From a virus (Duplodnaviria > Caudoviricetes), in the IMG/VR virus record IMGVR_UViG_3300026484_000176, positions 1-30,852 of that record: DNA of 30,852 nt; one strand, given 5' to 3'. Position numbers and translations under genes: made by a program. The notes beneath the pieces are model-generated. The model ran no database searches. It worked only from the letters and a program-made list of their open reading frames with translations, and had not been told where the DNA came from. Within the stretch, counting starts at the first letter, position 1; each line of letters begins with the position of its first letter. Below, one piece after another: positions 1 through 29,717 of this stretch.

Positions 1-127
1 AATATTAAAATCATTTTCCAAAATTATTCTATTTAAGTTTGTCATTGTGTGTCCTTTTTATTTTGTTTTTTATAAGTTGATTTATGAGTTTTTCAACTTA
101 TGTATTGTTATTATAATGTTTTTTTTT
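1..127. repeat. Terminal direct repeat (circular assembly overlap), copy 1
   Basis: 1-127 is identical to 30726-30852; 127 bp equals a common maximal assembler k-mer, so the contig is probably a closed circle of 30,725 bp. Confidence 0.95.
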
Positions 128-141
128 ATTTTTTGTTTTAA
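47..141 (-). promoter_or_regulatory. Early promoter/leader cassette driving ORF 30770..30321 across the circular junction
   Basis: Minus strand: TTAAAA (136-141), 20 nt, TATAAT (110-115), inverted repeat ATAAGTTGA-N12-TCAACTTAT (72-101), AAGGA RBS, then ATG. Confidence 0.75.
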
Positions 142-299
142 TTTTAAAAGAATTTATAATTTTTTTAGATTTTTATTTATTGAGGATAGAATGCACAATA
201 TATTATCACATAAAAAAAGGACAAACTTAAAAAATGCAATAATATATTGGGGTTGTAGTGCAAGTGTAGTAGATACACTGTTTATAGTATATCATAAAA

Positions 300-968: not shown

Positions 969-1502
969 TTAGTATATCATTTTATTTAATATTTTTTTAA
1001 TACCAGAAGTTATTGTTGTATTTTCTTTCTCTATAAAATTTAATAACTTGGCACATTCACTTTTGCTAATGTTTTTTTCTAAAAGATTAATATTTAAAAT
1101 TTTTAAAAATTCTTCTTTGTTATATTCTTCATTACAGTAATTATTTTTACTTTGTGAAGTATCTTCATATTCAACTTTTTTAATTTTTTTTGATTCACCA
1201 GACTTTTTATATTCTTTATACATTTTGTTTCTATCAATTTTAACAATTTGATTAACACTAATAAGATTATGTATATTTATTTCTAAATATTTATTTATAT
1301 AACCAAATAAAGAAGATTTCTCTCCTTTTGATTTGTAATTTAATGCTAATTTATATGCTGTTAAATAACATTCATTATAAATATCTTCATAAGAATACAT
1401 TAAATTATTATTTCTATATTTATAAGCTATTTTCCTGAATAGTTTTGAATAATTATTATAAATATGTTCTTGTAAATCTTCTGTTTTTATTTCTGTTTTC
1501 AT
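969..1502 (-). CDS. Sigma70 region-2-like protein
   Basis: YSKLFRKIAYKY...SYEDIYNECYLTAYKLALNY...SSLFGYI...QIVKI resembles sigma region 2; region 4 not evident. Confidence 0.6.
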   Translation of the reverse strand: MKTEIKTEDLQEHIYNNYSKLFRKIAYKYRNNNLMYSYEDIYNECYLTAYKLALNYKSKGEKSSLFGYINKYLEINIHNLISVNQIVKIDRNKMYKEYKKSGESKKIKKVEYEDTSQSKNNYCNEEYNKEEFLKILNINLLEKNISKSECAKLLNFIEKENTTITSGIKKILNKMIY

Positions 1503-2896: not shown

Positions 2897-3142
2897 TTAT
2901 TTCTTTATATCTTGTTTTTTAGAAGAATATCTGACTTTTGTTTTTAACATAATTTGAATTTCTTCAACCATTAATAAAATTTGATTTATATTTCTATAAT
3001 CTTTTAATAATAACTCATAATCTTCTTGTTCTAATTCTTTTACTGTTGTGAAATTACTTAATTTATATATTTGTTCTATTTCTTCTTTTATTTGTTCTAA
3101 GTCTCTTGTTTGTTGTTCTATTTCCATTTGTTCATAATGCAT
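2897..3142 (-). CDS. Hypothetical coiled-coil protein
   Basis: 81 aa ORF, first gene of the leftward arm, with own cassette. Confidence 0.75.
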   Translation of the reverse strand: MHYEQMEIEQQTRDLEQIKEEIEQIYKLSNFTTVKELEQEDYELLLKDYRNINQILLMVEEIQIMLKTKVRYSSKKQDIKK

Positions 3143-3238
3143 TGTTTATCCTTTTTTGTTTTGTTTTTATAAGTTGATTTATTAGATTTTCAACTTATCT
3201 ACTATTATTATAATAGATTTTTTTTATTTTCATCTTAA
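3143..3238 (-). promoter_or_regulatory. Early promoter/leader cassette
   Basis: TTAAGA (3233-3238)-N20-TATAAT (3207-3212); inverted repeat 3169-3198; AAGGA. Confidence 0.75.
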
Positions 3239-3274
3239 TTTTAAAAGAATTTGCAAATTTATAAATTATTTCAA

Positions 3275-3710
3275 GATGTAACCTTTTTTGTAACCTCTAT
3301 ACTTCCCTATATTCTGGGCTTTATGGACTGTTTTGGACTGTTGTTATTTTTTAGATGTAACCTTTTTGTAACCTTTTTGTAACCTCTGAAAGTTCCTGAT
3401 GTAGGGCTCTTCAAGTGTTTTGCTTGTTAAAATGTCTAAATTTTTTAGTTTTACTCTTATAAAATATAGTACACATAATTTATTTTTTTTTTAGTTATTT
3501 TAGTATATATTGAAAATTTATATGTTAAAAAACCTTATGAAAGTACATAATATAGGGAAGTATAGAGGTTACAAAAAAGGTTACAAAAAGGTTACATCTA
3601 TATTTTAACCATTCTCCAGCAAAACACTCGAACAGCCCTCGCCAGAGTGAAAAACTAAGCATGTCGAAAAGGTTACAAAAAGGTTACATCAGCAATAAAA
3701 TCATGTAACC
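3275..3710. repeat. Head-to-head GTAACC/GGTTAC iteron array with long inverted repeat; candidate replication origin
   Basis: GTAACC at 3278, 3290, 3357, 3368, 3379, 3705; GGTTAC at 3567, 3579, 3590, 3671, 3682; 11-12 bp spacing; about 3277-3313 is the reverse complement of 3549-3585; AT-rich centre; sits at the coding-strand switch. Repeat is seen directly, function is inferred. Confidence 0.75.
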
Positions 3711-4091
3711 TACTGATTAAAAAATAGGCAAAAACACCACTCGAGAGCAATAATTTTCAAATTTTGAAAGTTCCACGGATTTTTTTTATAACGGAAAATA
3801 ACAAAAAATAACAGAAATGAAAAATTAACGGAAAATAACAAAAATTAACATTAACGAAAAAAAACATTACATTCAGAAAAAATTTTCAAATTTTAAAAAT
3901 TTCCAAAAAGTGAAAAATTAAAAAACCAAAAAAATAAAAATGTTTTGAAAAATTAAAAATTAACAAAAGCTAACAAAAAAAAATATTAACAAAAAATAAC
4001 GAACAGGACATCCAGAAAAAATTTTCAAATTTCAAAATTTCACATGAACTTTTTTAGAAAACTTTAGGAACTTTTTTCGTGCAAAAAATTT

Positions 4092-4106
4092 TGATAATGA
4101 TTATCA
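4092..4106. promoter_or_regulatory. Fur-box-like palindrome
   Basis: TGATAATGATTATCA, perfect 7-1-7 Fur consensus. Confidence 0.7.
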
Positions 4107-4166
4107 ATATCGATTAAAAAAACAGGACATCCAGAAAAAATTTTCAAATTTCAAAATTTAGCAAAA

Positions 4167-4199
4167 TTAAGAGAACATTTTTTAAAAATCTATTATAAT
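4167..4199 (+). promoter_or_regulatory. Rightward promoter upstream of terS
   Basis: TTAAGA-N21-TATAAT, lying between the two 112-bp repeats. Confidence 0.6.
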
Positions 4200-4285
4200 G
4201 TATATTCAGAAAAAATTTTCAAATTTCAAAATTTCACATGAACTTTTTTAGAAAACTTTAGGAACTTTTTTCGTGCAAAAAATTT

Positions 4286-4300
4286 TGATAATGATTATCA
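4286..4300. promoter_or_regulatory. Fur-box-like palindrome
   Basis: TGATAATGATTATCA. Confidence 0.7.
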
Positions 4301-4342
4301 ATATCGATTAAAAAAACATTGCATTCAGAAATAATTTTCAAA

Positions 4343-4357
4343 TGATAATGATTATCA
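4343..4357. promoter_or_regulatory. Fur-box-like palindrome
   Basis: TGATAATGATTATCA directly after motif A (4326-4342), about 70 bp before terS. Confidence 0.7.
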
Positions 4358-4429
4358 AAAATAAATTTATAATATTATTAAAAAATAAGAAAAGAAAAAA
4401 ATATTTTAAAAATCAAAAAGGGATAAAAA

Positions 4430-4927
4430 ATGTCAAAAAAAATTTTATTAATTGAAGAACTAGAACAAAAAAACTTAATAAAAATTGCAAAAGAATATTG
4501 TTTAAATGGTTTTGATATTGTTTCAGCATATAAGACATTTATAAGCAAATCAGTATATAAGACAGATAAGAAAGCAAAAGAGAGAAGCGAAATTATTTCT
4601 GAATATACAGAGTTTAAAAACTATATAGAAGACTTTAAAGGAGATATAAAAGAACTTTATAGAGACACTACAATAGAGACAATATCAAAGCTAAGAGAGA
4701 TTATATTAAATGAATATTATGAGAAATATGATGTAATAAAAGATACTAAGACATTAGAACATAAAGACATTAAGTATAAATCTTCTATACCATTTACAGA
4801 CAAGCTAAGAGCCATAGAAACGCTAATAAAGCTATCTAAATTAGTAGAAGATGGAGAAGAAGATAAAGATACAAATAACACTATATTTAATTTTTATACA
4901 AAAGATTTAAACAAAAAGAAAAAATAA
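4430..4927 (+). CDS. terS: Terminase small subunit
   Basis: Directly upstream of TerL; N-terminal KEYCLNGFDIVSAY helix-turn-helix-like segment and DKLRAIETLIK resembling TerS C-terminal motif. Confidence 0.7.
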   Translation: MSKKILLIEELEQKNLIKIAKEYCLNGFDIVSAYKTFISKSVYKTDKKAKERSEIISEYTEFKNYIEDFKGDIKELYRDTTIETISKLREIILNEYYEKYDVIKDTKTLEHKDIKYKSSIPFTDKLRAIETLIKLSKLVEDGEEDKDTNNTIFNFYTKDLNKKKK

Positions 4928-4992
4928 TTTTTTTTAACATTATATAAAGAAATAATTTTTGAATTTAAAAATTTTTTCCAGATGTCATTAAA

Positions 4993-5025
4993 ATAAGAAG
5001 ACATTTTTTTTTAAAGTGTTATAAT
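4993..5025 (+). promoter_or_regulatory. Promoter upstream of terL
   Basis: ATAAGA-N21-TATAAT with TG extension (TGTTATAAT). Confidence 0.55.
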
Positions 5026-5066
5026 ATATATAAGAAAAGAAAAGGTTTTTAAAAGGAAAAAAATTT

Positions 5067-6347
5067 ATGAATACTCAAGAACTTTATCCATTATCTGAAA
5101 TATCACAACAAGTATGGGAAGAACAAGATAAATATAAGATACAATGCTTACAAGGAGCAGTTAGAAGTTCTAAATCATTTACTGCAAATATAATTTTTTT
5201 AAATAAATTAAAGAATAAAAAAGGAAATGTATTAATATCAGGATTTAGTGCAGATAGTGCAAAAAAGAATATATTACCAGAACTTGAAGAATTATTAAAT
5301 GTAGAATTTGAAGGACATAATAGCACAAAAGGAGAATATTTCAGCATACCTTTAAAAGAGTTTAGACATATAAAACTATATGTTAAAGGTGCAGGAAAGA
5401 ATGGAGATGAGAAAAAAATTCAAGGTATTACACTACTTGGTTGGTTAGCTGATGAAGTAGCAACATATTCAAAACCATTTTTTGATATGACATTAACAAG
5501 ACTAAGTATGTCAAATAGTTTTGCTATATGGACATTAAATCCAGAGAGTCCTTCACATTGGTTAAAGAAATGGTTAGATAAACAAGAAGAGATAAAAGAT
5601 AATAAATATATAAAAAATTATTATTATAAATTAGATGATAACTTATCATTAACAGAAGAATATAAGAATGAATTAAAAACAAGTTTCAGTGGTCATTTTT
5701 ATGATAGAATGGTTTTAGGAAAATGGGCAGTTGGAGAAGGATTAATATTTAATATAGATAAAGTTAAATTTGTAAAACAACAAGACATTCAGAAAAAATT
5801 TTCAAATATCCCAAAATTTTTATATGAAGATTATGTTGCAATAGATTTTGGAACTACTAATTATACAAGTTTTTTACATATAAGAAAACATATACCAAAA
5901 GAGATATATATAGATGAAGAAAAAGATAATGAAAGATATGCAGAATATTATATAATAAAAGAATTTTATAAGAATAAATTAAGTCCATCACAATATGTAA
6001 AAGAGTTAGAAGAGTTTATAAAAGATATAAATGTAATACAGATAATAATAGATCCAGCTTCTGCACATTTTAAACAAGAAGTCAAACAATCAGAATATAT
6101 AATGAAAAAGACAGAATTAAGAAGTGCAAAGAATGATGTCAAAAAAGGAATTTTATTAACCCAAAGATTTATAGAGAATGGATTATTAACAATATCAGAG
6201 GAATGTAAGAACTTAAAAGATGAATTAGGAGGATATAGCTGGGATGAAAAGAAGATAGATACACCTATAAAAGAGAATGACCATGCAGTTGATGCAATGA
6301 GATATGGAATATTTACAACTTCATCATTTACTTATGAAAGTTTATAA
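5067..6347 (+). CDS. terL: Terminase large subunit (PBSX/SPP1-like)
   Basis: Walker A GAVRSSKS, Walker B WLADE, coupling motif TLNP, nuclease residues IDFG, DPA, DHAVDAMRY. Confidence 0.95.
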   Translation: MNTQELYPLSEISQQVWEEQDKYKIQCLQGAVRSSKSFTANIIFLNKLKNKKGNVLISGFSADSAKKNILPELEELLNVEFEGHNSTKGEYFSIPLKEFRHIKLYVKGAGKNGDEKKIQGITLLGWLADEVATYSKPFFDMTLTRLSMSNSFAIWTLNPESPSHWLKKWLDKQEEIKDNKYIKNYYYKLDDNLSLTEEYKNELKTSFSGHFYDRMVLGKWAVGEGLIFNIDKVKFVKQQDIQKKFSNIPKFLYEDYVAIDFGTTNYTSFLHIRKHIPKEIYIDEEKDNERYAEYYIIKEFYKNKLSPSQYVKELEEFIKDINVIQIIIDPASAHFKQEVKQSEYIMKKTELRSAKNDVKKGILLTQRFIENGLLTISEECKNLKDELGGYSWDEKKIDTPIKENDHAVDAMRYGIFTTSSFTYESL

Positions 6348-6355
6348 ATATATTT

Positions 6356-6370
6356 TGATAATCATTATCA
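6356..6370. promoter_or_regulatory. Fur-box-like palindrome (inverted composite element)
   Basis: TGATAATCATTATCA followed by the reverse complement of motif A (6371-6390). Confidence 0.7.
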
Positions 6371-6439
6371 TTTAAAAATTTTTACCGTATATTCAGAAAA
6401 AATTTACAAATTTACAAATTTTTTAAAAATTTAGCAAAA

Positions 6440-6472
6440 TTAAGAATAAAAAAATTTTTTTTCTATTATAAT
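6440..6472 (+). promoter_or_regulatory. Promoter of early-cassette type
   Basis: TTAAGA-N21-TATAAT then ATAAGTTGAAA half-site (6481) and AAGGA. Confidence 0.65.
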
Positions 6473-6526
6473 ATAAGTATATAAGTTGAAAGACTTAAAG
6501 AAAAAACAAAAAAAAAGGACAAAAAA

Positions 6527-6862
6527 ATGAAAAACTTAATAAAAGAATTAACAAACAAAGTAAATAAAATAAACGCAATAAACGATAAAATAGAAAATTT
6601 TAGAGCTGATATGCTTCCAAGAGATAAATTTATATTTGGATTAGAAGAAGAAGAATTAACAATAACAATTGAAAATCCTTATAAAGATTCAAAATTTTCT
6701 TTATCAATAGTTAAAGAAGAAGAAAACAAAGAAAGATTTAATAAAGCTTTTAATAAATTATTAGAAGATTTAACAGAAGAAGAGTTAAGCGAACAACTTT
6801 GGGAAATAATATATGTTTTCTATACTTTTAATAATAATTATGAATTAGTTGAAAGATACTAA
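6527..6862 (+). CDS. Hypothetical protein
   Basis: 111 aa acidic ORF with strong RBS and own promoter. Confidence 0.8.
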   Translation: MKNLIKELTNKVNKINAINDKIENFRADMLPRDKFIFGLEEEELTITIENPYKDSKFSLSIVKEEENKERFNKAFNKLLEDLTEEELSEQLWEIIYVFYTFNNNYELVERY

Positions 6863-7011
6863 TCCATAATTTTAAAAAATTTTTTTTAAAATGTTATAAT
6901 TAAACAAGACATTCAGAAATAATTTTTGAATTTAAAAATTTCTTTAAAATAAGAACAAAAAAAATAAAAAAACATTATAATAAATAATGAAAAGAAAAGG
7001 AAACAAAAAAA

Positions 7012-7371
7012 ATGAAAATTAATTTTAAATGTTGTATGACTTGTAATATTGTAAAAGATATTAAACATTTCAATAAAAACAATAGACATTGTAAAAAATG
7101 TATAGCAAAAAAAATTAAACAAAAAAGACAAGAAACAAAAAAACATTTATTAAAAAGAAGAGGAAACAAATGTGAAGACTGTGGATTAGAATATGATGGA
7201 GAGAATATTTATTATTTTACATTTCATCATGTAAAACCAGAAGAAAAAAAATTTGAATTATCAGCAAATAAAAATTATTCTTTAAAAGAATTAGAAGAAG
7301 AAGCAGACAAATGTATAATATTATGCCACAATTGCCACAATAAATATCATTATATAAATGGATTTAAATAA
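7012..7371 (+). CDS. Zn-binding HNH endonuclease
   Basis: CxxC pairs, CEDCG...FHH...KCIILCHNCH; own promoter ATAAGA-N21-TATAAT at 6949-6981. Confidence 0.85.
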   Translation: MKINFKCCMTCNIVKDIKHFNKNNRHCKKCIAKKIKQKRQETKKHLLKRRGNKCEDCGLEYDGENIYYFTFHHVKPEEKKFELSANKNYSLKELEEEADKCIILCHNCHNKYHYINGFK

Positions 7372-7511
7372 TTAATGACATCCAGAAATAATTTTCAAAT
7401 TTCAAAATTTAGCAAAATTAAGAACAAAAAAAATAAAAATCTATTATAATCAAAATCAAAATTATTTTTGTAATATAATTAAAAATAAAATATTACAAAA
7501 GGTATTAAAAA

Positions 7512-7793
7512 ATGAAAGAAGAAAAAAAGGATTTTTGTACTTTATTTTTTGAAAATTATCGAGGTGTATATATTGGAGATTGTTGCAAAAAGCACGATAT
7601 AGAGTGTGGATTTTCAGGTTCTTACAGTATTAAAAAATCAATAGATATATTTTATAATTGTTTAATAAATAAAATAGATAAGTTTTCTGCTATAATGATA
7701 ACAGCAGGTGGAACAATAGGATACATTGTAAAATATCCTTATTTATTTATAAGAAAATATAAATATAGAAAAAAAATTTTAAAGGAAAAATAA
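7512..7793 (+). CDS. Phospholipase A2-like small protein
   Basis: DFCT...DCCKKHD matches the CCxxHD secreted-PLA2 catalytic signature; promoter TTAAGA-N21-TATAAT at 7418-7450. Confidence 0.55.
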   Translation: MKEEKKDFCTLFFENYRGVYIGDCCKKHDIECGFSGSYSIKKSIDIFYNCLINKIDKFSAIMITAGGTIGYIVKYPYLFIRKYKYRKKILKEK

Positions 7794-7794
7794 T

Positions 7795-9081
7795 ATGTCA
7801 GTAAAGTCAAATAATAAATATAAAACATTAGCAGAACATATAATAAAAACATATGAAGATGATGAATATTACAAAAATTCAATATTTAAAAATGAAGTTT
7901 TAGGTAAACATATAGTAGATAAATTTGGAAATATAGATGATAAAGCAATATCACAAATTCAAATAATGGTTTTGCCATTTGTTAGATTTATAACAACTGC
8001 AATATCACAATTATATTCAAAACCAGTTTTAAGAACAATAAATACAGATAATAATAAAATATTAGAATTATTTGAGGAAGTTTGTTCAGCTTATGACAAT
8101 ATTTCAGAAGATATAGACAAATATACATTTGCAGGTGGAATGTCAGCAGTAAAAGCACATTTTGATGATATAGATAAAGAATTAGAATTTGTGATATATA
8201 CAGCAAATATGTTAGATTATACTCCAAGAGCTGATGATTATACAAAAATGGAAGAATTATATCTAAGTTTTTATAATGATGAAGTACAACAAGAAGAGGT
8301 TTGGAGTAAAGAAGAATATAATTATAATGTAAATGGTTCAAATTCAAAAAGTGAAAAAAATATTTATGGATTTATTCCTTTTGAAATTTTTAGAAATAAA
8401 ATAATTCCAAATTCTTGGTTTTGTCCTCCTTCTTCTAATTTATTAGACATTCAAAATTATATTTCTAATCAAAATACACAATTAGGAAATAATTTTAAAT
8501 ATCAATCAATGGATATGATAGTTGTTAAAGGTGGAGGAAAGTTAGAAAATATGAATTTTGGTGCAAAAGCTGTAAATAAAGTAGAAACAGAAGATGATAT
8601 AAAATTTATTTCTCCATCTACAGATTTAAAAAAATTAGTTTCAGTAGTTGAAGACCAAATAAAAATTTTTTCAAGAATGAATGGAATACCTGATTCATTA
8701 ATTTCTGCTGCTTCTACAAGCTCAGGAATATCTTTAATAATATCACAAAAAGCTTTAGATGATTATTTAAAGAATAGAAGTATAAAATTTAGAAAGACAG
8801 AAGAAAAAATTCTTTTAAAAGGTCTTAAAGTATTAGGATATCATAAAGGAATAACTATACCAGAAGAATTAAAAATTTCTTTAAATTATACTTCTGCAAA
8901 TCAAATGACAAAATTAACAGAAGATGAACAAAAAATGTGGGATTTTTATATAGAAAAGAATATATTAACAGAAGTTGATTTAATGATGACAATGTTTCCA
9001 AATCTAACAGAAGAAGAAGCAATCCAAAAGATAGAAGAGAACAAACAAAACAAAACAAAACAAGAAATCATTACATCTTGA
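7795..9081 (+). CDS. Portal protein
   Basis: 428 aa, position after TerL; N.YG.IPF, SSG.SL and C-terminal TEEEA...IEE features typical of SPP1-like portals. Confidence 0.85.
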   Translation: MSVKSNNKYKTLAEHIIKTYEDDEYYKNSIFKNEVLGKHIVDKFGNIDDKAISQIQIMVLPFVRFITTAISQLYSKPVLRTINTDNNKILELFEEVCSAYDNISEDIDKYTFAGGMSAVKAHFDDIDKELEFVIYTANMLDYTPRADDYTKMEELYLSFYNDEVQQEEVWSKEEYNYNVNGSNSKSEKNIYGFIPFEIFRNKIIPNSWFCPPSSNLLDIQNYISNQNTQLGNNFKYQSMDMIVVKGGGKLENMNFGAKAVNKVETEDDIKFISPSTDLKKLVSVVEDQIKIFSRMNGIPDSLISAASTSSGISLIISQKALDDYLKNRSIKFRKTEEKILLKGLKVLGYHKGITIPEELKISLNYTSANQMTKLTEDEQKMWDFYIEKNILTEVDLMMTMFPNLTEEEAIQKIEENKQNKTKQEIITS

Positions 9082-9123
9082 AAAAATTTTCAAATTTCAT
9101 TACATACGGAAAAAATTTTTAAA

Positions 9124-9138
9124 TGATAATGATTATCA
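9124..9138. promoter_or_regulatory. Fur-box-like palindrome
   Basis: TGATAATGATTATCA after two tandem motif-A variants (9074-9123), just upstream of the RBS of ORF 9163. Confidence 0.7.
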
Positions 9139-9162
9139 AAAAGAAAAAAAAGGATTTTTAAA

Positions 9163-9975
9163 ATGACAACTGAAGAATTAGTAAAAAAATTAAGTCAAAC
9201 AACAGATAGAAAAGCAATATTAAGATTAATAAAAGAAGCAACTATAGATAATTCAATAAAAATTGATGATATTGCTTCTGGTGATATTGGTGATACATAT
9301 ATGTTAAAATCTGATTATGATACTGATAAGAATGGAACAGTAGATATAGCAGAATTAGCGTGGGAATCAAGTGAAGCTGCAAGAGTTAATGGACATACAG
9401 TAGAGAGTGATGTTCCTTCAAATGCAGTTTTTACAGATACAACATATACAGATTTAGAAATAAAAACAAAATATGAAAATAATCCTAATACAAATGCTTA
9501 TACAGATATAGAAAAAGCAAAATTAGATGGAATAGAAGAAAATGCAACAGCAGATTTAACAGCACCAGAGATTAAATCATTATATGAGAGTAATGCAAAT
9601 ACAAATGTTTTTTTAGATGCAGAAAAAGCAAAACTAGCAGGAATAGAACCATTAGCAACAGCAGACCAAACAGATGAAGAAATTAAAATTGCATACGAAA
9701 ATAATTTTCAAGTTTTAACAATAAACTCTGATACAATATTAACAGAAGAAAAAAGAAGTATTTTAGCTGATACAATAAATAATAATATAAATTTAACTTT
9801 ACCAAATTTAAAAGATAATTTAATAATAAATATAAAAAAAATTAATGAAAAAAATATTTTAAGAATTATAACTCCTGGTAATGAATTAATAGAAAATGAT
9901 ACAGAAATAATTTTAAATGTTAAAAATGAAAGCATAACACTTTTATGTGATAATAATAATTGGTTTATTATATAA
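9163..9975 (+). CDS. Fibre-like virion structural protein
   Basis: 37-aa tandem repeats with EKAKL.GIE..ATAD, a YDTDKNGTVD motif and a C-terminal ILADT...INLTLP beta domain, all seen in phage fibre proteins. Confidence 0.6.
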   Translation: MTTEELVKKLSQTTDRKAILRLIKEATIDNSIKIDDIASGDIGDTYMLKSDYDTDKNGTVDIAELAWESSEAARVNGHTVESDVPSNAVFTDTTYTDLEIKTKYENNPNTNAYTDIEKAKLDGIEENATADLTAPEIKSLYESNANTNVFLDAEKAKLAGIEPLATADQTDEEIKIAYENNFQVLTINSDTILTEEKRSILADTINNNINLTLPNLKDNLIINIKKINEKNILRIITPGNELIENDTEIILNVKNESITLLCDNNNWFII

Positions 9976-10024
9976 TAAAATTAAATAACAAGATATTAAG
10001 AAAAAATTTTTAAAAGGAAAAAAA

Positions 10025-11227
10025 ATGAGTTATAAACCATTTAATATGTATGATAAGAATGATACAGCATTTGATGCTTGGGGAAGACCAAAGATTTATC
10101 AAGATTTATCATTATTGCATGGAGTTTTTACATATAATGTTCCAAATTCTTTATGGATAATAAAAGAAAATGGAACTGAATTATTAGATAATGATACTTC
10201 AACAAAAGTTTATTCTTCTACTATAAACTTAGGAAGATTAATAGTAGAATCAGGAGAAAATGCAAATGATGAAGGAAGCTTATATTCAAGAAGAAGTCCA
10301 AGATATCAGCCAAATAGAGGACATTTATTTTCAACAGCAGTAGGTTTCCCAAATCCAACAGCAGATGGGATTAGAGATTTTGGATTATTTAATGAAGAAA
10401 ATGGAGTTTTTTATAGATTAAAAGCAGATGGATTATATGCAGTTATAAGAAGTGAAGGTTCTGATTATGAAGAAAAAATAACAATACCTTTTTCAATAGA
10501 TTTATCAAAAGGGAATATTTATGATATACAATTTCAATGGAGAGGAGTAGGAGATTATAATTTTTTTATTGGAAATCCAGAAAGTGGGAAAATAGAATTA
10601 GTTCATAAAATAACTTTTTTAAATACATTAACAGAAAAATTATCAATTTCTAACCCTGCTTTACCAGTTGGAATGAAAGCAACTAATATAACAGAAGCAG
10701 TAAGTTTTTGGCTTGGTTGTTTTGATGTTTCAAGTGAAGGTGGAAGTAAAGTATTTTTTAAATATTCGCAAGTAGGAAATGATAATATAAATGGAACAAA
10801 AATATCAAATGATAAATTATATCCAGTAGTTGCTTTAAAGGTAAATAGAACATTTAATGGAAGAATAAATACAAGAGATGCAATATTAAGAAGAATAATA
10901 TTAAGTGCAAAAGATGAAAATAGATATGAAGTACAAGTAACAAGAGATGAATCAGCTTTTTCTGGAACAACTTGGACAAATAAAGGAAGTTTTGATAATA
11001 TGCAATATTCACAAGGTACAGATATATCATATACAGAAACACAATATTGTCATACAATATTAAATGGAAGAAGTGAAATAGATATAAAAAATGAAATAGC
11101 AACTCCTGTTTTTGATGGAAGTTCTGATTTTACATTAACTGCTGGTGATTATATAGTAGTTTTAATGAAAACAGATGGAACAGATAAAAGAGCTTGGGCA
11201 TCTATTGAATATACAGAAGAAGTATAA
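10025..11227 (+). CDS. Putative beta-rich virion structural protein
   Basis: 400 aa; DAWGR N-terminal motif, RYQP.RG, QWRGVG; beta/lectin-like composition; function inferred. Confidence 0.55.
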   Translation: MSYKPFNMYDKNDTAFDAWGRPKIYQDLSLLHGVFTYNVPNSLWIIKENGTELLDNDTSTKVYSSTINLGRLIVESGENANDEGSLYSRRSPRYQPNRGHLFSTAVGFPNPTADGIRDFGLFNEENGVFYRLKADGLYAVIRSEGSDYEEKITIPFSIDLSKGNIYDIQFQWRGVGDYNFFIGNPESGKIELVHKITFLNTLTEKLSISNPALPVGMKATNITEAVSFWLGCFDVSSEGGSKVFFKYSQVGNDNINGTKISNDKLYPVVALKVNRTFNGRINTRDAILRRIILSAKDENRYEVQVTRDESAFSGTTWTNKGSFDNMQYSQGTDISYTETQYCHTILNGRSEIDIKNEIATPVFDGSSDFTLTAGDYIVVLMKTDGTDKRAWASIEYTEEV

Positions 11228-11649
11228 TGAAATTATTTTTAAATTATACACCAGTTCCTGCTTCAAGACCAAGAGTAACGAAGTGGGGGACATTTTATAG
11301 TAAAAAATATAATGATTATAAAAATAAAATAAAACATGACATTCAGAAAAAATTTTTAAATGATAATGATTATCAAAAAGCAGAAAAAACAACTGCATTA
11401 AATATAAAAATAATTTTTAAATTTCCTTTTCCAAAATCATATAGTAAAAAAAAGAGATTAGAAATAAAAGAAAATAATTATTTGCATTTAATAAAACCAG
11501 ATTTAGATAATTTAGAAAAAGCTATTTTAGATGGAATGAATGAAATTGTATATAATGATGATAGTCAAATATGTGAATTATCAAGTTCTAAAAGATATAC
11601 AGAAGAGGAAAACGGAAGTACAGAAATAATTATAGAAGTTATAAAATAA
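11227..11649 (+). CDS. rusA: RusA-family Holliday junction resolvase
   Basis: PVPASRPR N-terminus; KPDLDNLEKAILDGM...YNDDSQI catalytic motif. Confidence 0.92.
   Translation: MKLFLNYTPVPASRPRVTKWGTFYSKKYNDYKNKIKHDIQKKFLNDNDYQKAEKTTALNIKIIFKFPFPKSYSKKKRLEIKENNYLHLIKPDLDNLEKAILDGMNEIVYNDDSQICELSSSKRYTEEENGSTEIIIEVIK
11361..11375. promoter_or_regulatory. Fur-box-like palindrome inside rusA
   Basis: Motif A (11344-11360) + TGATAATGATTATCA, read as DIQKKFLNDNDYQK. Confidence 0.65.
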
Positions 11650-11703
11650 TTTTTTTTATGATATACTATAAAAGAACAAAAAACAAAAAAAAAGGAATTA
11701 AAA

Positions 11704-12342
11704 ATGCTTACAGAAGAAGAAAAAATAAAACAACAACTGGAAGAATTAAACAAAAAGAAAGAAGAGGAAAACAATGATAACAATACTAATAATAATGAAG
11801 AAGATAAGAAAGAAAATGAAGAAAATGATGCAGAGAAAAAATTTTCAAATGATAATGATTCTCAAAAAGAAAATAAAGAAGAAGTAGAAGATAAAAAAAA
11901 AGAACAGGAAAAATCTATATCGAAAGAGCAAGAAATACTAAACAAAAGAATAGAAGAACTTGAGAAAAAATTAGAAGAAGAAAGACAAAAGAAAGAAGAA
12001 ACAGAAAAAACATTATTAGAAAAACAAAATGAGATTTTAGAGAAGTTAAAAGATAAAGAAAGAAAGATAGAAGAAAAGATATTAGAAAGTTCAGGTGCAG
12101 AAGATAAAGAATATGTTAAATATTTAGCAGAAAAACTAGTAAATGAAGGCAAAACATTTGAAGAAGCTATAAATGTATTAAATGAAGAAAAACCTAATTT
12201 ATTTGTGCAAAATAGAAAAAGCATAGGGACAAAACCAAATGGAAACAGTTCAGGAAAATTAACATATGCAGAATGGGAAGCATTACCAAAGAATGAAAGA
12301 ATAAAACAAATGAATGCAGGAAATGTTGATTTAAACTCATAA
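11704..12342 (+). CDS. Capsid scaffolding protein
   Basis: Highly charged coiled coil directly before the capsid gene; EKPNLF motif; extended -10 TGATATACT at 11659-11667. Confidence 0.8.
   Translation: MLTEEEKIKQQLEELNKKKEEENNDNNTNNNEEDKKENEENDAEKKFSNDNDSQKENKEEVEDKKKEQEKSISKEQEILNKRIEELEKKLEEERQKKEETEKTLLEKQNEILEKLKDKERKIEEKILESSGAEDKEYVKYLAEKLVNEGKTFEEAINVLNEEKPNLFVQNRKSIGTKPNGNSSGKLTYAEWEALPKNERIKQMNAGNVDLNS
11850..11864. promoter_or_regulatory. Fur-box variant inside scaffold gene
   Basis: Motif A + TGATAATGATTCTCA (one mismatch). Confidence 0.6.
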
Positions 12343-12440
12343 AAAAAAATTATAATATAATTATATAAGTTATTTTTTAACAATATAATTATATTTTTAT
12401 AATATAATATAAAAAATTAAAACAAAACAAAGGAAATAAA

Positions 12441-13256
12441 ATGGCATTCAAAAAAACTTTTTGGTCAGATAAACTTGAAGAAAAATTATATGCAAATCAA
12501 CCTCTTATAGATGTTGTTAGAGCAGATTTTGAAGGTGAAGCAAAATTTGGTAATATGGTTAAGGTATATACTTATGAGTCAGCTGTAACAGTTCAAGACT
12601 ATGATGGAGTTACACCAGTACCAGCACAAAAACTTGCACCGTCTGAAGTTACTTTACTAATAGACCAAGCAAAAACTTTTAGAATAAGAACAGATAGAGT
12701 TGATGAACTACAAGGTGATCCTATGGCAATTGACAAATTTGCTAAAACAGCAATGTTTGAAGTTGGTCAATTAATAGAATCTAAAATATATGCACATAAA
12801 GCAGATTTAACAAATAACTTAGATTTATCAGGTCAAGGACCAATGGACGCAACAAATGCAGTTTCTATAATTGAAAAACTTGAGGTTTTACTTGATGATG
12901 AAAATGTTGATACAGACAGATTTTTATATGTACCAAATGCTATAAAATCTATTTTAAGACAAGCAAATTATTTAAATGTAACACCAGTAACTAATTCTGA
13001 AACAGGTGGAACAAGAGAAGTTGCAAGATGGGGAAATTTTGAAGTTATTTCTTCTAGTAATTTAGTTGCTAATGGTGGAGTTTATGAAATCTTATTTGGT
13101 TCAAAAGATGCTATAAGATTTGTTGGAGCATTAGAAGAATTAGAATATGGAAAAGTTGAAGGATTATTTGGTAAAGCAATTTTTGGTCTTTATGTATATG
13201 GTTCAGCAGTTTTCAATTCTAAAAAAGGTGGAACATTAACAATAGATGCTGCATAG
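12441..13256 (+). CDS. Major capsid protein
   Basis: FWSDKL, FEGE..FGNMVKV, LLIDQAK, VP..DRFLYV-like and GLYVYG motifs of P22-coat-like HK97-fold capsids; follows scaffold. Confidence 0.88.
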   Translation: MAFKKTFWSDKLEEKLYANQPLIDVVRADFEGEAKFGNMVKVYTYESAVTVQDYDGVTPVPAQKLAPSEVTLLIDQAKTFRIRTDRVDELQGDPMAIDKFAKTAMFEVGQLIESKIYAHKADLTNNLDLSGQGPMDATNAVSIIEKLEVLLDDENVDTDRFLYVPNAIKSILRQANYLNVTPVTNSETGGTREVARWGNFEVISSSNLVANGGVYEILFGSKDAIRFVGALEELEYGKVEGLFGKAIFGLYVYGSAVFNSKKGGTLTIDAA

Positions 13257-13327
13257 TGTTTATTGTTAATTAAATATTAAAAAATTTCTCTTTTATGATA
13301 TAATATAAAAAACATAAAAGGGAAATT

Positions 13328-13555
13328 ATGAAAAAAACAAAAATAATAAATACAAAAACAAATTTAGTCTTCTATATATTAGATTTATTTGTTCCTACAC
13401 AATTAGAAAAAAATCCACATTATAAAATCTACAAAGAAAAAAAATCCACAAAGAAAAAAAATAATAATAAAATTAAAGAAGAACAAGATATTCAGAAAAA
13501 ATTTTCAAATGATAATGATTATCAAAAAGAAAAAAAACAAACAAAGGATAAATAA
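13328..13555 (+). CDS. Small basic hypothetical protein
   Basis: 75 aa; extended -10 TGATATAAT at 13296-13304; TAATG-coupled to next gene. Confidence 0.65.
   Translation: MKKTKIINTKTNLVFYILDLFVPTQLEKNPHYKIYKEKKSTKKKNNNKIKEEQDIQKKFSNDNDYQKEKKQTKDK
13510..13524. promoter_or_regulatory. Fur-box-like palindrome inside ORF 13328
   Basis: Motif A (13493-13509) + TGATAATGATTATCA, read as DIQKKFSNDNDYQK. Confidence 0.65.
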
Positions 13556-13935
13556 TGTTAATATTAACAGGACAAGACATAATTGAATATATGCCAGTTA
13601 TATCAGAATATGCAGGATATGAAAGAGATAATACAGTATTTGATGAATATATATTATCAGTAGCACAAATTTTATTAAATGAATTACAAATGGCAGGAAT
13701 AGATGGAACAACTGAAGAGGTACAAAACAGTCCTTTGTTTAAAGAGCTTACATTAAAAACAATAGTATGTAAATATTATAATGAAACAAGTTATAATATA
13801 GAAGAAGACGAAAGATTTATAACAAGTTTATGTGAAGATTCAAAAGATTTTTTAAAAAAATTTATAAAATCAATGTTAGATAATGGAACACCAGATAAAT
13901 TTAATGGTTCAATAACTACTTCATATTCAGGTTAA
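13555..13935 (+). CDS. Putative head-tail adaptor
   Basis: Size, helical character and position after the capsid gene. Confidence 0.5.
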   Translation: MLILTGQDIIEYMPVISEYAGYERDNTVFDEYILSVAQILLNELQMAGIDGTTEEVQNSPLFKELTLKTIVCKYYNETSYNIEEDERFITSLCEDSKDFLKKFIKSMLDNGTPDKFNGSITTSYSG

Positions 13936-13939
13936 TAAT

Positions 13940-14299
13940 ATGAAAAAATCTAGAATATTAAGAAAATTAGATAAAAGACTAGATAATAAAAAAATTTCAA
14001 ATATTATGGCTAAATATATAGCAATACAAGCTAAAAAAAATATTAAGTCTGGAAAAGATGCTAATTATAAAAAATTTAAGAAAAGAAAGACAAAAAGAAA
14101 AAATAAGATTTTGTATGATACAGGAGATTTATATAAATCTATTAAATATAAAAAAAATAATATTTCTTTATTATTATATGGAATTTTTAATCAATATGGA
14201 ACAAGTAGAGGAATAGATTCAAGAAAATTTATTCCAATGAATAAGACAAAGCAATTTGAAGTTATAAAAAAAAGAATACTTAAAGGATTATTAAAATGA
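13940..14299 (+). CDS. Virion morphogenesis / tail completion protein (Mu gpG, P2 gpS-like)
   Basis: ILYDTGDLYKSI and NQYGT...I..RKFI motifs. Confidence 0.75.
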   Translation: MKKSRILRKLDKRLDNKKISNIMAKYIAIQAKKNIKSGKDANYKKFKKRKTKRKNKILYDTGDLYKSIKYKKNNISLLLYGIFNQYGTSRGIDSRKFIPMNKTKQFEVIKKRILKGLLK

Positions 14300-14682
14300 T
14301 AACACAATATTTAAAAGATTTATTACAAGATTTTAAAGATAAAAATCCAGAATTTAATAAGATAAAGACTTCAGTTGGTTTAACACAAACATTAGAAAAT
14401 AGAAAGAATTTTGCTGATTTACCATTAATATTAATAGAAAATATAAATTTTTCTAGTGATGATTTATTAACAGGAACATTATCTTTTGATATAATGTATT
14501 TTGATATAGACAAAAAATATAATGGATATGAAAAGTTAGAACAAGACTTTTTGGAAAAATTTATAAATTATATCAAAAATTATGTTTGTGAAATAAATAT
14601 AACTAATATAGAGTTTGAAATATCTGATACAGACAATGAATTTGGTGTCATTGTTAGTTGTGATACAGTATATACAATTTAA
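14296..14682 (+). CDS. Putative tail terminator
   Basis: Position before tail tube, acidic, LPLILI motif; ATGA-type overlap. Confidence 0.5.
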   Translation: MITQYLKDLLQDFKDKNPEFNKIKTSVGLTQTLENRKNFADLPLILIENINFSSDDLLTGTLSFDIMYFDIDKKYNGYEKLEQDFLEKFINYIKNYVCEINITNIEFEISDTDNEFGVIVSCDTVYTI

Positions 14683-14738
14683 AAATTTTTTTATAATATC
14701 ATTATAAGAAATAATTAAACAAAACAAAAGGAAATAAA

Positions 14739-15686
14739 ATGGCAATAGGTAAGTCAAAAAAACAACTTTTATCAATTCAAAGAAGTTATGATAATGCAAA
14801 TTATGATTCAATACCAGTTACAAATGTTATAGATATAAATCCAGAAGCAGTTGGTGAAGATATAAATTTAATTACTTCAAAAATGGGAAGTAAAAGAAAT
14901 TATAATGATAAATGTCATACAACTGTTAATTTTAATATTGAAACATATTTAACAAGTAAATTAATTACTTATGATAATGGTGGAACAGATGAATATTATT
15001 CTATATTAGATACATTATTAAAACAATCTGGTATGAAATCAGCACAATTAGGTATAGGTATAGGAGTTGAATATACACCAGACTCAAATGCAAATGATAA
15101 TTCAATAATGAATTTTTATAAAGAAGATGTTAAAAGAACAATAACAGGTGCAAAAAACTCTTTAACAATATCTGGTGAAGTAGGAAAACCATTAGCAATA
15201 ACTTTTAATAATTCAGCATATACTGATTTAGTTCCAACAATATCAGCACCAACTGAACCTGATGCTGTTTTAGATAGTGGAGAATTATTTATTCTATGTA
15301 AAATACAAGGATATACAGAAGCTGGAAATATTGTTAATTTACAATCTTTTACATTAAATCAAAATACAGAATTACAAGATACATATGCAATAGGTTTAGG
15401 ACAATTTGATATGACAGATTATGATTATCAATTAGAAGTTACAGCATTAAAGTTAAAAAATGATATTTCAAATTGGCAAGATTTTGAAGCAGGAACACTT
15501 AAAGAAATAGTTATAGGTGCTACAAATTCTGATGAAACACATGAAATAACAATTGTTATAAGTCAAGCAAAATTATTAACAAATACTGATGGAGACGATG
15601 CTGGAAGACAAACAGTAGTAAGAAATTTTAGATGTCAAAATGATTTAGGTGATGACAATATAAAAATAATAATTGCAGAAGCATAA
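14739..15686 (+). CDS. Major tail (tube) protein
   Basis: 315 aa beta-rich; TGAK.SLTISGEVG motif; position before chaperone and TMP. Confidence 0.8.
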   Translation: MAIGKSKKQLLSIQRSYDNANYDSIPVTNVIDINPEAVGEDINLITSKMGSKRNYNDKCHTTVNFNIETYLTSKLITYDNGGTDEYYSILDTLLKQSGMKSAQLGIGIGVEYTPDSNANDNSIMNFYKEDVKRTITGAKNSLTISGEVGKPLAITFNNSAYTDLVPTISAPTEPDAVLDSGELFILCKIQGYTEAGNIVNLQSFTLNQNTELQDTYAIGLGQFDMTDYDYQLEVTALKLKNDISNWQDFEAGTLKEIVIGATNSDETHEITIVISQAKLLTNTDGDDAGRQTVVRNFRCQNDLGDDNIKIIIAEA

Positions 15687-15748
15687 AATAATAATTTTGT
15701 GATATACTATATAAAAATAATTTTTAAATTAAAAAAGGATATCACAAA

Positions 15749-16021
15749 ATGAAAAAATTAAGTTTTAAAACAAAAGAAACTAAAAGAAAGACTACAATAT
15801 TATTAGAAATTGATAATGAAGAAATAGAAGTAATTTTTACAACTCCTACTGCTTCAAATGTCGGACAAGATAAATTAATAATTGATATGTTTAAATCAAT
15901 GTTAAGATTAAATAAAGATAAAGAAAAAATTTTTAATTTATTAATTGATAATTTAGATATAGAACAAATAACAGAGATTATAGGTTCTGTTAATGAAGAA
16001 CTTTATCTAAAAAAAAAATAA
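15749..16021 (+). CDS. Tail assembly chaperone (gpG-like, short form)
   Basis: Between tube and TMP; ends on an A10 slippery run. Confidence 0.8.
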   Translation: MKKLSFKTKETKRKTTILLEIDNEEIEVIFTTPTASNVGQDKLIIDMFKSMLRLNKDKEKIFNLLIDNLDIEQITEIIGSVNEELYLKKK

Positions 16022-16359
16022 AAAGACTTTTTAAGTGGACTGAGCAGAATTCAAAAGATGACGGTTCACTTAATAAATACATAATAGAAAATAAAGAAGA
16101 ATATTTAAAATTAGATATAGAAGATGAAAATTATATAGAATTTTTAGAAGATGATTATGAATTAAAAGAATTATCAGAAATATTTTTATTAATTCCTTGG
16201 GATTATTCAGATGGGATTATTTTAAATAAGAACTTTATTGCTACAAAAACACTACTAAAACTCCATGGTTATGACTTAAAGACTACTTTACCACTATTTC
16301 TACAATTATCTAATATTTGGGCTAATAATAAAAGAGAAGAAATTAAAAATAAAATTTAA
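16009..16359 (+). CDS. Tail assembly chaperone -1 frameshift extension (gpGT-like)
   Basis: The -1 frame is open from the A10 run (16009-16018) to TAA at 16357-16359 (IKRLFKWTEQNSKDDG...REEIKNKI) with no ATG of its own. Confidence 0.8.
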   Translation, partial: KKKIKRLFKWTEQNSKDDGSLNKYIIENKEEYLKLDIEDENYIEFLEDDYELKELSEIFLLIPWDYSDGIILNKNFIATKTLLKLHGYDLKTTLPLFLQLSNIWANNKREEIKNKI

Positions 16360-16416
16360 TGTGTAATATAATTAAAATAATAAATAAAATCATTATATAG
16401 AGAAAAAATTTTTAAA

Positions 16417-16431
16417 TGATAATGATTATCA
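16417..16431. promoter_or_regulatory. Fur-box-like palindrome upstream of TMP
   Basis: AGAAAAAATTTTTAAA + TGATAATGATTATCA about 10 bp before the AAGGA RBS. Confidence 0.7.
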
Positions 16432-16452
16432 AAAAGAAAAAAGGAAAATTTT

Positions 16453-18603: not shown

Positions 18604-18660
18604 AATAATATAATAAAAACAAGATATTCAGAAAAAATTTTTAAATTATAAAGGAAGAAA

Positions 18661-29000: not shown

Positions 29001-29717
29001 TTAAAATAAATTTTCTAAATTGTTATCTTTTAGATATTTTTTTATTTTTAATATTATATTTTTAATATTATTATTTATTTTTTTTGTTTTACCAGATAAA
29101 AAATCTTCAATATATTTTAATTCTTTTTCTGTTATTTTTTTTGCCTCATAACATTCAAATATAACATCTAAAATAGGAGTTTTTTTTCTTTCTTCTGTGT
29201 TATCTAATATATAAGTATCAAGAGTTATACCTTTATCTTTATCTTCTATCTCACTCTCAAATAATTCAAAATTTTTTTTAATCTTATTCTCTTCTTTGCA
29301 TTTATTTAATAATTCTTCATATTCTTTTTCTGTTATCTTTTTATTTTTCAAATCTTTCTTTAATTCTTTCTCATATTTATCAACTTTAAGTTTATTATAT
29401 CCATATTTTTCCCAAAATTTAGTAACCCAAGGAATATGAACTATATCATGGTTTTCAATTGTAAATTTATATAAAGAATTATATATTGAAGAATATACAA
29501 AAGAAGTTATCTTCATTCCTTTTGTTTCATCATATTTTGAATGTGCTATTATTACACTTATCCAAGCTTCTTGCAATAAATCGTGTATGTTCTGTTTTGA
29601 TTTTTTAGAAAAAGAAATAGCAAATTTATAAACCATATTCTCATACTGTTCAATAATATTATATTTGAACTTTTTTTCTATTTCTTCAGTTGTCAAATAT
29701 TCTTTTTCTTCTTTCAT
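29001..29717 (-). CDS. Sigma70 region-2-like protein
   Basis: YENMVYKFA...HDLLQEAWISVIIAHSKYDETKGMKITSFVY...IVHIP closely follows the sigma region 2 consensus (DLxQE, yD..kG.kf.ty, ir.P). Confidence 0.75.
   Translation of the reverse strand: MKEEKEYLTTEEIEKKFKYNIIEQYENMVYKFAISFSKKSKQNIHDLLQEAWISVIIAHSKYDETKGMKITSFVYSSIYNSLYKFTIENHDIVHIPWVTKFWEKYGYNKLKVDKYEKELKKDLKNKKITEKEYEELLNKCKEENKIKKNFELFESEIEDKDKGITLDTYILDNTEERKKTPILDVIFECYEAKKITEKELKYIEDFLSGKTKKINNNIKNIILKIKKYLKDNNLENLF

Follow-up and report, generated by a model that had tools for sequence, protein, structure and literature searches.

Evenly spaced Fur-box palindromes running from the terminase genes of a phage, with a possible role for host Fur near DNA ends

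Bacterial Fur operators have been described in a 7-1-7 form, TGATAATnATTATCA, and in a 19-bp form, GATAATGATAATCATTATC (PMC7536154, PMC11353095, PMC3950669). In the 19-bp box, two 7-1-7 sites overlap with a 6-bp offset (PMC7536154, PMC11353095), and so one Fur would read both forms. In B. subtilis the half-sites are TGATAAT for Fur, TTATAAT for PerR and TCGTAAT for Zur (PMC3950669). The preference described for H. pylori holo-Fur is TAATAATnATTATTA, two letters off the palindrome, and Aliivibrio Fur is described as binding short 15-mers more weakly than 19-mers. Phage DNA bearing a host Fur site is known from lambdoid coliphages, in which the sitABCD Fur box is the operator of prophage accessory genes (PMC6969025). 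For Repeat Region 3 and the injection stop signal of phage T5, DnaA boxes have been proposed (bioRxiv 10.1101/866236); the word iron is absent from the main text of this preprint, the supplements of which could mention Fur. Our search of literature titles and abstracts returned, among the matches listed, no paper on phage Fur arrays.

The window analysed here is a stretch of 30,852 nucleotides, assembled as a circle whose ends overlap by 127 nt, and represents a complete phage genome of 30,725 bp. The 15-bp palindrome TGATAAT-N-ATTATCA occurs in it as eight exact copies and one variant (Table 1). The earlier note on this DNA had placed the exact copies at 4092, 4286, 4343, 6356, 9124, 11361, 13510 and 16417, and all of them were recovered, as was the variant at 11850, which has one mismatch. 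The gaps it gave from 4343 on (2013, 2768, 2237, 2149 and 2907 bp) are correct, and so are its placements of three boxes near ribosome binding sites and three before terS. It had seen no perfect copy past 16.5 kb or in the early arm, and we found neither exact nor one-mismatch copies elsewhere in the genome. The description of the ladder as genome-wide does not hold, as the set covers just 12.3 of 30.7 kb; it starts just 5′ of terS, points the same way as the late genes and ends at 16.4 kb. The note had missed several features described below: the fused repeat A, the in-frame copies, the terminase link in other phages and the small share of late promoter-like sites with a box (2 of 17).

Against the eight exact copies, Markov models of orders 0 to 5, suggested beforehand as a check, expect 0.002-0.010. 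Allowing up to two mismatches, the genome has 12 matches, while shuffled genomes had 1.87 on average and five at most (12 was reached in none of 100 shuffles). The step of the ladder averages 2,415 bp, which is 7.9 % of the genome, and the spacing is even (CV 0.147), with P 0.0009 against uniform placement and P 0.004 against gene borders, both in tests devised post hoc on five gaps; with the variant box added, P is 0.015-0.03. Logan contigs of run X1 match positions 3284-11600 with identical letters among the eight pieces listed, leaving two short gaps near 4032-4206 and breaking at repeats. The repeats are therefore not an artefact of a single assembly, although run X1 is possibly the source sample, so that the match is not independent. 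To the left of 3.58 kb the contig depth was 16.9, to the right of it 26-40. This would fit a pac step, but it concerns a single short contig and is given no weight as evidence here.

Table 1. Positions of boxes, repeats and neighbouring genes in the window
Feature	Position	Strand	Remarks
sigma-70 region-2-like protein	969..1502	-	kept in G001 (36%); candidate phage regulator
inverted GGTTACA repeat arrays	3274..3690	.	likely replication origin
non-coding region before terS	3868..4362	+	five repeat A copies, three Fur boxes, 194-bp tandem duplication
Fur box 1	4092..4111	.	exact 15-mer; matches the 19-bp form at 2 mismatches; no repeat A fusion
Fur box 2	4286..4305	.	duplicate of box 1
repeat A + Fur box 3	4320..4357	+	box begins 25 bp 5′ of terS TATAAT
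probable terminase small subunit	4430..4927	+	by position; 49% identity to syntenic G001 ORF
terminase large subunit, probable PBSX family	5067..6347	+	in-frame repeat A without box at 5784
inverted repeat A + Fur box 4	6356..6393	-	back to back with forward repeat A at 6388
repeat A + Fur box 5	9101..9138	+	between portal-position gene and ORF 9163
repeat A + Fur box 6	11338..11375	+	in frame in RusA (11227-11649), reads DIQKKFLNDNDYQK
repeat A + Fur box 7 (one mismatch)	11827..11864	+	in frame, probable scaffold gene
repeat A + Fur box 8	13487..13524	+	in frame, near end of ORF 13328-13555
repeat A + Fur box 9	16394..16431	+	between TATAAT and tape-measure gene RBS
repeat A without box	18623..18646	+	last strong copy of A; 2229 bp past last rung
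sigma-70 region-2 protein	29001..29717	-	kept in G001 (45%); candidate phage regulator

The motif has the form of a Fur site. The boxes are 7-1-7 inverted repeats with TGATAAT half-sites (eight exact, one with one mismatch), and TGATAAT is present on at least one side in all nine, by a rule which is that of B. subtilis. Together with the 19-bp form in a relative, the phage G001, and the lack of a FUR-family protein among those encoded by either phage, the half-site supports the identification as Fur made in the earlier note, and the nine palindromes are likely docking sites for iron-loaded host Fur. Two of the nine boxes match the 19-bp form at two mismatches, the rest having at least three; the seven boxes of the G001 cluster match it at one to three. 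Such a switch from 15 to 19 bp between relatives fits Fur better than a phage protein. A blast search with box 1 found a match in a Ralstonia replicon between siderophore genes and an AraC gene, one of three matches opened, the others lying before eno and in an unannotated stretch. The boxes are not distributed like those of iron-regulated promoters, as a late TATAAT is no more than 60 bp away for two of nine and three are located in ORFs.

G001 was the sole close relative found in IMG/VR scans with TerL, capsid, portal, tail-tube and the composite motif. A metagenome scan (19 of 64 parts) and a genome scan yielded, beyond the phage's own record, only TerL relatives of 27-35 % identity, and TerL at 42-48 % identity exists as protein sequences without DNA. 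Around distant terminase relatives, the exact box occurs in none of 158 loci (1.85 Mb), only three of which are below 32 % GC. When positional conservation was checked in G001, neither the ladder nor repeat A was there and its late genes had no boxes, yet this phage shares the terminase family and a similar genome size. Its seven 19-bp boxes lie at 5025-6855, between the origin and terS, with gaps of 0.07-0.5 kb; shuffles of the entire genome had 0.075 on average. The boxes at 11361, 11850 and 13510 of our phage are inside ORFs and in frame, while the orthologues have none; the segment of RusA that contains box 6 is missing from its orthologue. Entry into genes is thus specific to this lineage. 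As to the host, we found no related prophage, and the search for homologues of the G001 HU protein was not informative. Among plasmids, Arcobacter HU gave the best E-value for G001 HU, at a bit score equal to that of Bacillus HU, and both Arcobacter and G001 HU have R-x-P-G where RNP is usual. The host is likely to belong to the Campylobacterota.

We scanned the whole of IMG/VR for two exact boxes 20-50 bp apart and obtained 12 loci. Nine of them are within 2.2 kb of a terminase gene and represent four lineages; six of the nine are one family, and one array is located 3′ of terL. L166, L167 and L178, from a partial scan, likewise lie within this distance of terminase genes, but no such link was established for L243/G002 (nine sites in 530 bp) or for L199/L203. 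A Pfam terminase search of five array-bearing records gave one weak match, and the missed terminases were found by PHROGs. The same motif is thus borne by unrelated phages with unrelated terminases, and in phages with one cluster this is beside the terminase genes or in a terminal repeat. In T5 (AY587007), all four matches are in the terminal repeats and none in the unique part, one of those in the repeats being some 550 bp short of the right end. As to the box at 233 of T5, in dmp, four of eight relatives have it exactly and the other four have a synonymous change; it may be just peptide-driven. A dispersed ladder was absent at all 12 paired-box loci in the DNA examined around them, and so the ladder rests on one genome.

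TerL scored 104.9 bits against TIGR01547 (cut-off 105.05), compared with 121.2 for G001 TerL and 168.1 for SPP1 gp2. Its nearest solved structures are 5OE8/5OEA, it is 27 % identical to D6E TerL, and blastp gave no significant match to SPP1 gp2. Given a TerL that probably shares the family of SPP1, packaging probably begins near terS and proceeds as a rightward headful series, although terminase family is an imperfect guide to headful mode. Sequential headfuls begin at the preceding cut (PMC8402733). There is no long terminal repeat in the record, and the boxes are dispersed. SPP1, D6E and NrS-1, which share the terminase family, have no box at up to one mismatch. The non-coding region before terS is a candidate pac region, and the two boxes at 4092 and 4286 are the halves of its tandem duplication. 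The GGTTACA arrays upstream are a likely replication origin, judging from the sequence: AT skew flips its sign there, and G001 has other inverted repeats at the matching place. Family search of the probable terS gave no match. Among the starts examined, AAGGA was present as ribosome binding site at 30 of 36 and GGAGG at none.

The explanation we tentatively prefer, while giving it less than an even chance, is that host Fur docks near DNA ends and that the even ladder covers ends shifted rightward by headful packaging. Fur would be a structural helper on the phage DNA and not a promoter switch. Every headful would end one terminal redundancy to the right of the previous one, and a ladder that starts at terS and runs rightward for about six steps would keep every end made in 4-19 kb no further than 2.9 kb from a Fur site. 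At an end, Fur could shield against exonucleases, hold the DNA at re-initiation of packaging, or stop the back-sliding of entering DNA, with shielding or holding as our first guess. The ladder disregards gene borders, with three boxes in frame in genes and few at late promoters.

Titration was proposed as well: replicating genomes would absorb the Fur of the host, thereby lifting the repression of iron uptake or of other genes under Fur control, and position would be irrelevant. Multicopy Fur boxes are established to titrate Fur (FURTA). Both our phage and G001 retain many near-consensus sites that differ in place and form, and other phages have dense gene-free arrays, reaching 14 matches within 560 bp (L378). 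A decoy, however, needs neither even spacing nor boxes in RusA and scaffold, and it leaves the link to terminase genes unexplained. Moreover, the run holding the phage DNA is labelled hydrothermal vent metagenome, and ferrous iron is usually plentiful at vents. We regard titration as unlikely.

The gating of late transcription, the other role put forward in the earlier note, fared less well. Fur would keep the promoters of terS, the tape-measure gene, ORF 9163 and ORF 13555 repressed until it is outnumbered by replication or iron falls. The box at 4343 does overlie the -35/spacer zone belonging to the TATAAT of terS, the box at 16417 is in the tape-measure leader, and two more are 39 and 45 bp 5′ of an ATG (the latter being box 8); near box 5, neither TATAAT nor TATACT was found within 120 bp. 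The hexamers of the late genes are ordinary TATAAT/TATACT, and the 39 ORFs searched gave no match to an integrase, repressor or iron gene family, in line with the earlier failure to recognise a phage repressor. Nevertheless, no box is found within 60 bp of 15 of the 17 late promoter-like sites, among them those of terL, scaffold, major capsid and tail tube. In G001 the late genes are free of boxes, the nearest being 1.3 kb from terS and behind another ORF, and late control could run through the phage's own pair of conserved sigma-like proteins. A timer of this kind is rather unlikely. TGATAAT was also considered as a -10 element and dropped, because 17 late genes show TATAAT/TATACT.

Seven of the nine boxes form the 3′ half of a longer repeat, the 5′ partner of which is the phage-specific repeat A. 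This raises the option that only the cluster before terS is functional and that the downstream copies hitch-hiked with repeat A by recombination of promoter cassettes. The genome has several homogenised promoter cassettes, several of them opened by repeat A, and repeat A, which G001 lacks along with the ladder, has 26 profile matches among those listed (17 being the copies that built the profile), mostly without a box. Against passive spread, the seven fused copies have the same box except for a single position in a single copy, while the A half varies at many, the box spacing is more even than chance, and the copies in RusA, TerL and scaffold took the place of coding sequence in frame. We find it quite improbable. 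A CodY site was considered for repeat A and dropped after comparison by eye with the CodY consensus. The phased A-tracts of repeat A resemble the bent DNA of pac sites. An Rfam search gave no match.

Least probable of all is that TerS or a sigma-like protein binds the palindrome, with or without repeat A, and that it only looks like a Fur box: the set begins at terS, repeat A is phage-specific with phased A-tracts, and TerS and both sigma-like proteins are common to the two phages, but the 6-bp shift between outer half-sites from one phage to the other is what a pair of overlapping Fur dimers would give, the motif recurs in unrelated phages whose terminases are unrelated too, and one match of box 1 lies beside siderophore genes. 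For ORF 1883, put forward in the earlier note as a possible phage binder, there was no family, no useful Atlas match and no counterpart in G001. Repeat A alone may be a site for a phage protein.

Docking of Fur near ends makes numerical predictions: a pac site near 3.9-4.4 kb, ends reaching to about 19 kb and a redundancy near 2-3 kb. These separate an end role from decoy and operator roles, which compact arrays cannot. A broader version, which we consider doubtful, is that lytic phages recruit Fur as an end-binding cofactor, with one terminal array in phages with fixed ends and, in the present headful packager, a ladder over the permuted ends with a step of about the terminal redundancy, for which protein genes were rewritten. 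If true, iron status would directly govern the entry of DNA, the survival of its ends or packaging, and the injection-stop region of T5 would be explained by the same element. If Fur binds, it would be an undescribed host factor at the genome ends of many unrelated phages, testable in T5 and E. coli. The DNA motif was strong enough to enter RusA and a scaffold gene in frame, much as uptake sequences are written into bacterial genes.

With bacterial Fur operators, the phage boxes share the exact 7-1-7 consensus, the Fur-type half-site and, at two mismatches in boxes 1-2 and one to three in G001, the 19-bp form. Here, however, 12 kb of virion genes contain nine copies that are almost the same; most of them are off promoters, three are in ORFs and no iron gene lies below. 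The sitABCD coliphages also bear a host Fur site; they are temperate, however, with one operator before an iron-transport operon, and our phage has no such cargo. T5 Repeat Region 3 has in common Fur-like palindromes, non-coding terminal-repeat DNA and the flank TTTTTAAATGA(T/G)AAT, whereas T5 has fixed ends and a single array and the sites here are dispersed. T4-type phages possess mobile promoter cassettes and, likewise, homogenised promoter-leader repeats genome-wide; here the copies are also in frame in genes and contain the site of a host regulator. IHF acts as a host architectural protein at lambda cos, and the likeness is that of a host DNA-binding protein by the terminase site. Fur differs in being a metal-sensing repressor and not a DNA bender, and its candidate sites recur along the presumably permuted region.

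The box series of the window is real, and the boxes are probably sites of host Fur. A motif search confirmed all nine positions listed in the earlier note (see table), where at most 0.01 exact copies are expected under Markov models of composition. In contigs built independently from the probable source run, the eight listed pieces between 3284 and 11600 showed no letter change. The first 127 bases are identical to the last 127, so the window represents a phage genome of 30,725 bp, assembled as a circle. The boxes span 40 % of this genome; the "genome-wide ladder" claimed before thus stands as a series, but not in its genome-wide extent. The spacing is even: the five distances separating perfect copies have a coefficient of variation of 0.147 (P = 0.0009 relative to uniform placement, P = 0.004 relative to gene borders, and P = 0.015-0.03 with the variant box included), by a test designed post hoc, once the data had been seen. 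Seven of the nine boxes belong to a composite element, with a 24-bp repeat (repeat A, consensus GACATTCAGAAAAAATTTTCAAAT) as its 5′ half and the box as its 3′ half. Given the layout of its forward and reverse copies, repeat A is mostly oriented away from the putative origin; a box-less copy extends the series 2229 bp beyond the last box, and several homogenised promoter cassettes start with the repeat.

The phage has a GC content of ~22 %. Its late arm runs rightward with probable terS (4430), terL, head, tail and holin-like genes up to 27.3 kb, and its early arm runs leftward with a primase and two sigma-70 region-2-like proteins. Among the 39 window ORFs scanned, none matched the integrase, repressor or FUR families. 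The sole run containing the window DNA is labelled as hydrothermal vent metagenome. Ribosome-binding sites (AAGGA at 30 of 36 starts, GGAGG at none of the 36), together with an Arcobacter-like motif in the HU of the relative G001, point to a putative Campylobacterota host.

Features of the window and of other box-bearing viral sequences
Sequence	Position	Feature	Remarks
Window	4092, 4286, 4343, 6356, 9124, 11361, 13510, 16417	Exact boxes	TGATAAT-N-ATTATCA
Window	11850	Variant box	One mismatch
Window	3868 to 18646	Repeat A, forward	17 clear copies
Window	2911, 3280, 4986, 6393	Repeat A, reverse	Few; two left of origin
Window	3274-3690	Inverted repeat arrays	Look origin-like
Window	969-1502, 29001-29717	Sigma-70 region-2-like proteins	Two within a 31-kb phage, both retained in G001; might activate late genes or compete with host sigma
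Window	42-171, 2336-2465, 2777-2906, 3139-3268	Early cassettes (promoter-hairpin-RBS)	Four, near-identical, preceding small early genes; hairpin arms ATAAGTTGA...TCAACTTAT; suggesting cassette shuffling
Window	4940-5025	Back-to-back TATAAT sites	Between terS and terL; one antisense into terS, behind reverse repeat A
Window	16010-16358	90-aa ORF preceding tape-measure gene	Ends in A-run, then frame without ATG; by eye looks like the usual tail-chaperone frameshift
G001 (L001)	3058-6980	3.9 kb without ATG-started ORF of at least 50 aa	Origin-like repeats, 85-bp tandem repeat, seven Fur boxes, many TTTTTATT motifs
G001 (L001)	1818-2108	HU/IHF-like protein gene	No such ORF among window ORFs
G001 (L001)		Motif AAATAATTTTTGC, five copies	Differs from repeat A; core common to some A variants
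Phage T5 (L370)	233-247	Exact Fur 15-mer in frame in dmp	233 bp from left end; reads DNDYQ, as in-gene window copies
IMG/VR locus L378	10001-10554	Fourteen Fur-box matches	Partly 89-bp periodic array; contig end, upstream of tail and terminase genes
G004 (L230)	3887, 5366, 6162	Three Fur-like boxes	Dispersed, 0.8-1.5 kb apart, upstream of weak terminase match; possible second case of spread-out sites
G002 (L243)	2217-2749	Nine Fur-like boxes in 530 bp	Record positions; close to the start of a 62-kb low-GC viral contig; no terminase by Pfam
Paired-box loci, six of one family	~360 bp before terS	Two exact boxes
Paired-box locus, one	112 bp before terS	Two exact boxes
Paired-box locus, one	2.1 kb before terL	Two exact boxes
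Paired-box locus, one	170 bp after terL	Two exact boxes

Positional conservation, which the earlier note had proposed to look for, was not seen in the sole close relative found, G001 (TerL 73 %, syntenic), which has no ladder. Between its origin and terS it carries, in a non-coding stretch of 1.8 kb, seven 19-bp boxes (1-3 mismatches), with one further weak match elsewhere (shuffle mean 0.075). According to PMC7536154 and PMC11353095, the 19-bp box consists of two 7-1-7 sites with a six-base offset and is bound by two Fur dimers. PMC3950669 gives TGATAAT as the Fur half-site of B. subtilis, unlike the PerR or Zur half-sites, and TAATAATnATTATTA as the holo-Fur site of H. pylori, so the window boxes are not an exact match to the Fur of that Campylobacterota species. 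Because the two phages realise one consensus in its two known forms, the boxes of both would be most readily attributed to a single reader from outside the phages, Fur; judging from the sequences, the binder is probably a Fur-family host protein.

Boxes were also found in other phages. Scanning 3 of the 64 parts of IMG/VR recovered 121 loci, 41 of them with flanks of just 300 bp; 103 were single-site and none had more than six sites. The multi-site loci L166, L167 and L178 lie 0.1-1.9 kb upstream of terminase genes. The complete IMG/VR scan, which required two exact boxes at a distance of 20-50 bp, returned 12 loci, none with a ladder; nine had a terminase gene within 2.2 kb and the other three could not be placed. 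In T5, all four matches within one mismatch are in the terminal repeats, where one is located within the injection-stop region, with its copy lying ~550 bp from the right end. The dmp box is exact in only four of eight T5 relatives and therefore carries no weight here. No exact box occurred around distant terminase relatives (158 loci, a weak control for base composition), and SPP1, D6E and NrS-1 had no box within one mismatch.

The common theme of the box-bearing phages is that the sites are close to where DNA ends are made. For the PBSX family, of which SPP1 gp2 is a member, the window TerL scores right at the cut-off. In pac phages each headful begins at the previous cut, so successive ends are displaced from each other by one terminal redundancy; the P22 headful is 104 % of the genome (PMC8402733). 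If pac lay near terS and packaging followed the late-gene direction, sites spaced 2.4 kb apart between 4.3 and 16.4 kb would leave a Fur site at most 2.9 kb from every end made up to ~19 kb. We tentatively suggest that the boxes might be docking sites for Fur near these ends. This single account would explain where the series starts, which way it runs, its even spacing and limited length, and why it ignores gene borders. It fails to explain the compact cluster retained by G001.

A decoy role, as in the Fur titration of the earlier note, seems unlikely. The boxes could serve as a late-gene timer with still lower probability; they do not follow promoters, as a TATAAT/TATACT hexamer occurs at 17 late genes and just two of these have a box within 60 bp of it. 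Passive spread with repeat A is improbable; RusA, the probable scaffold gene and ORF 13328 each contain one box in frame, terL contains a box-less repeat A in frame, and the orthologous positions in G001, where repeat A was not found, have neither. Binding by a phage protein is the most doubtful. The roles are not mutually exclusive: box 4343 could be a terS repression site and the others could serve the ends.

We found no description of Fur-site arrays in phage genomes in the literature searched, with most subscription journals outside the search. The two nearest printed cases are a single Fur box that precedes the sitABCD genes of lambdoid phages (PMC6969025) and, in T5, the injection-stop repeats, which their source (10.1101/866236) interprets as DnaA boxes. 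Phage Fur-box arrays as a class are not unique to the window genome; the dispersed layout seen there is new, and no other layout yields so sharp a prediction.
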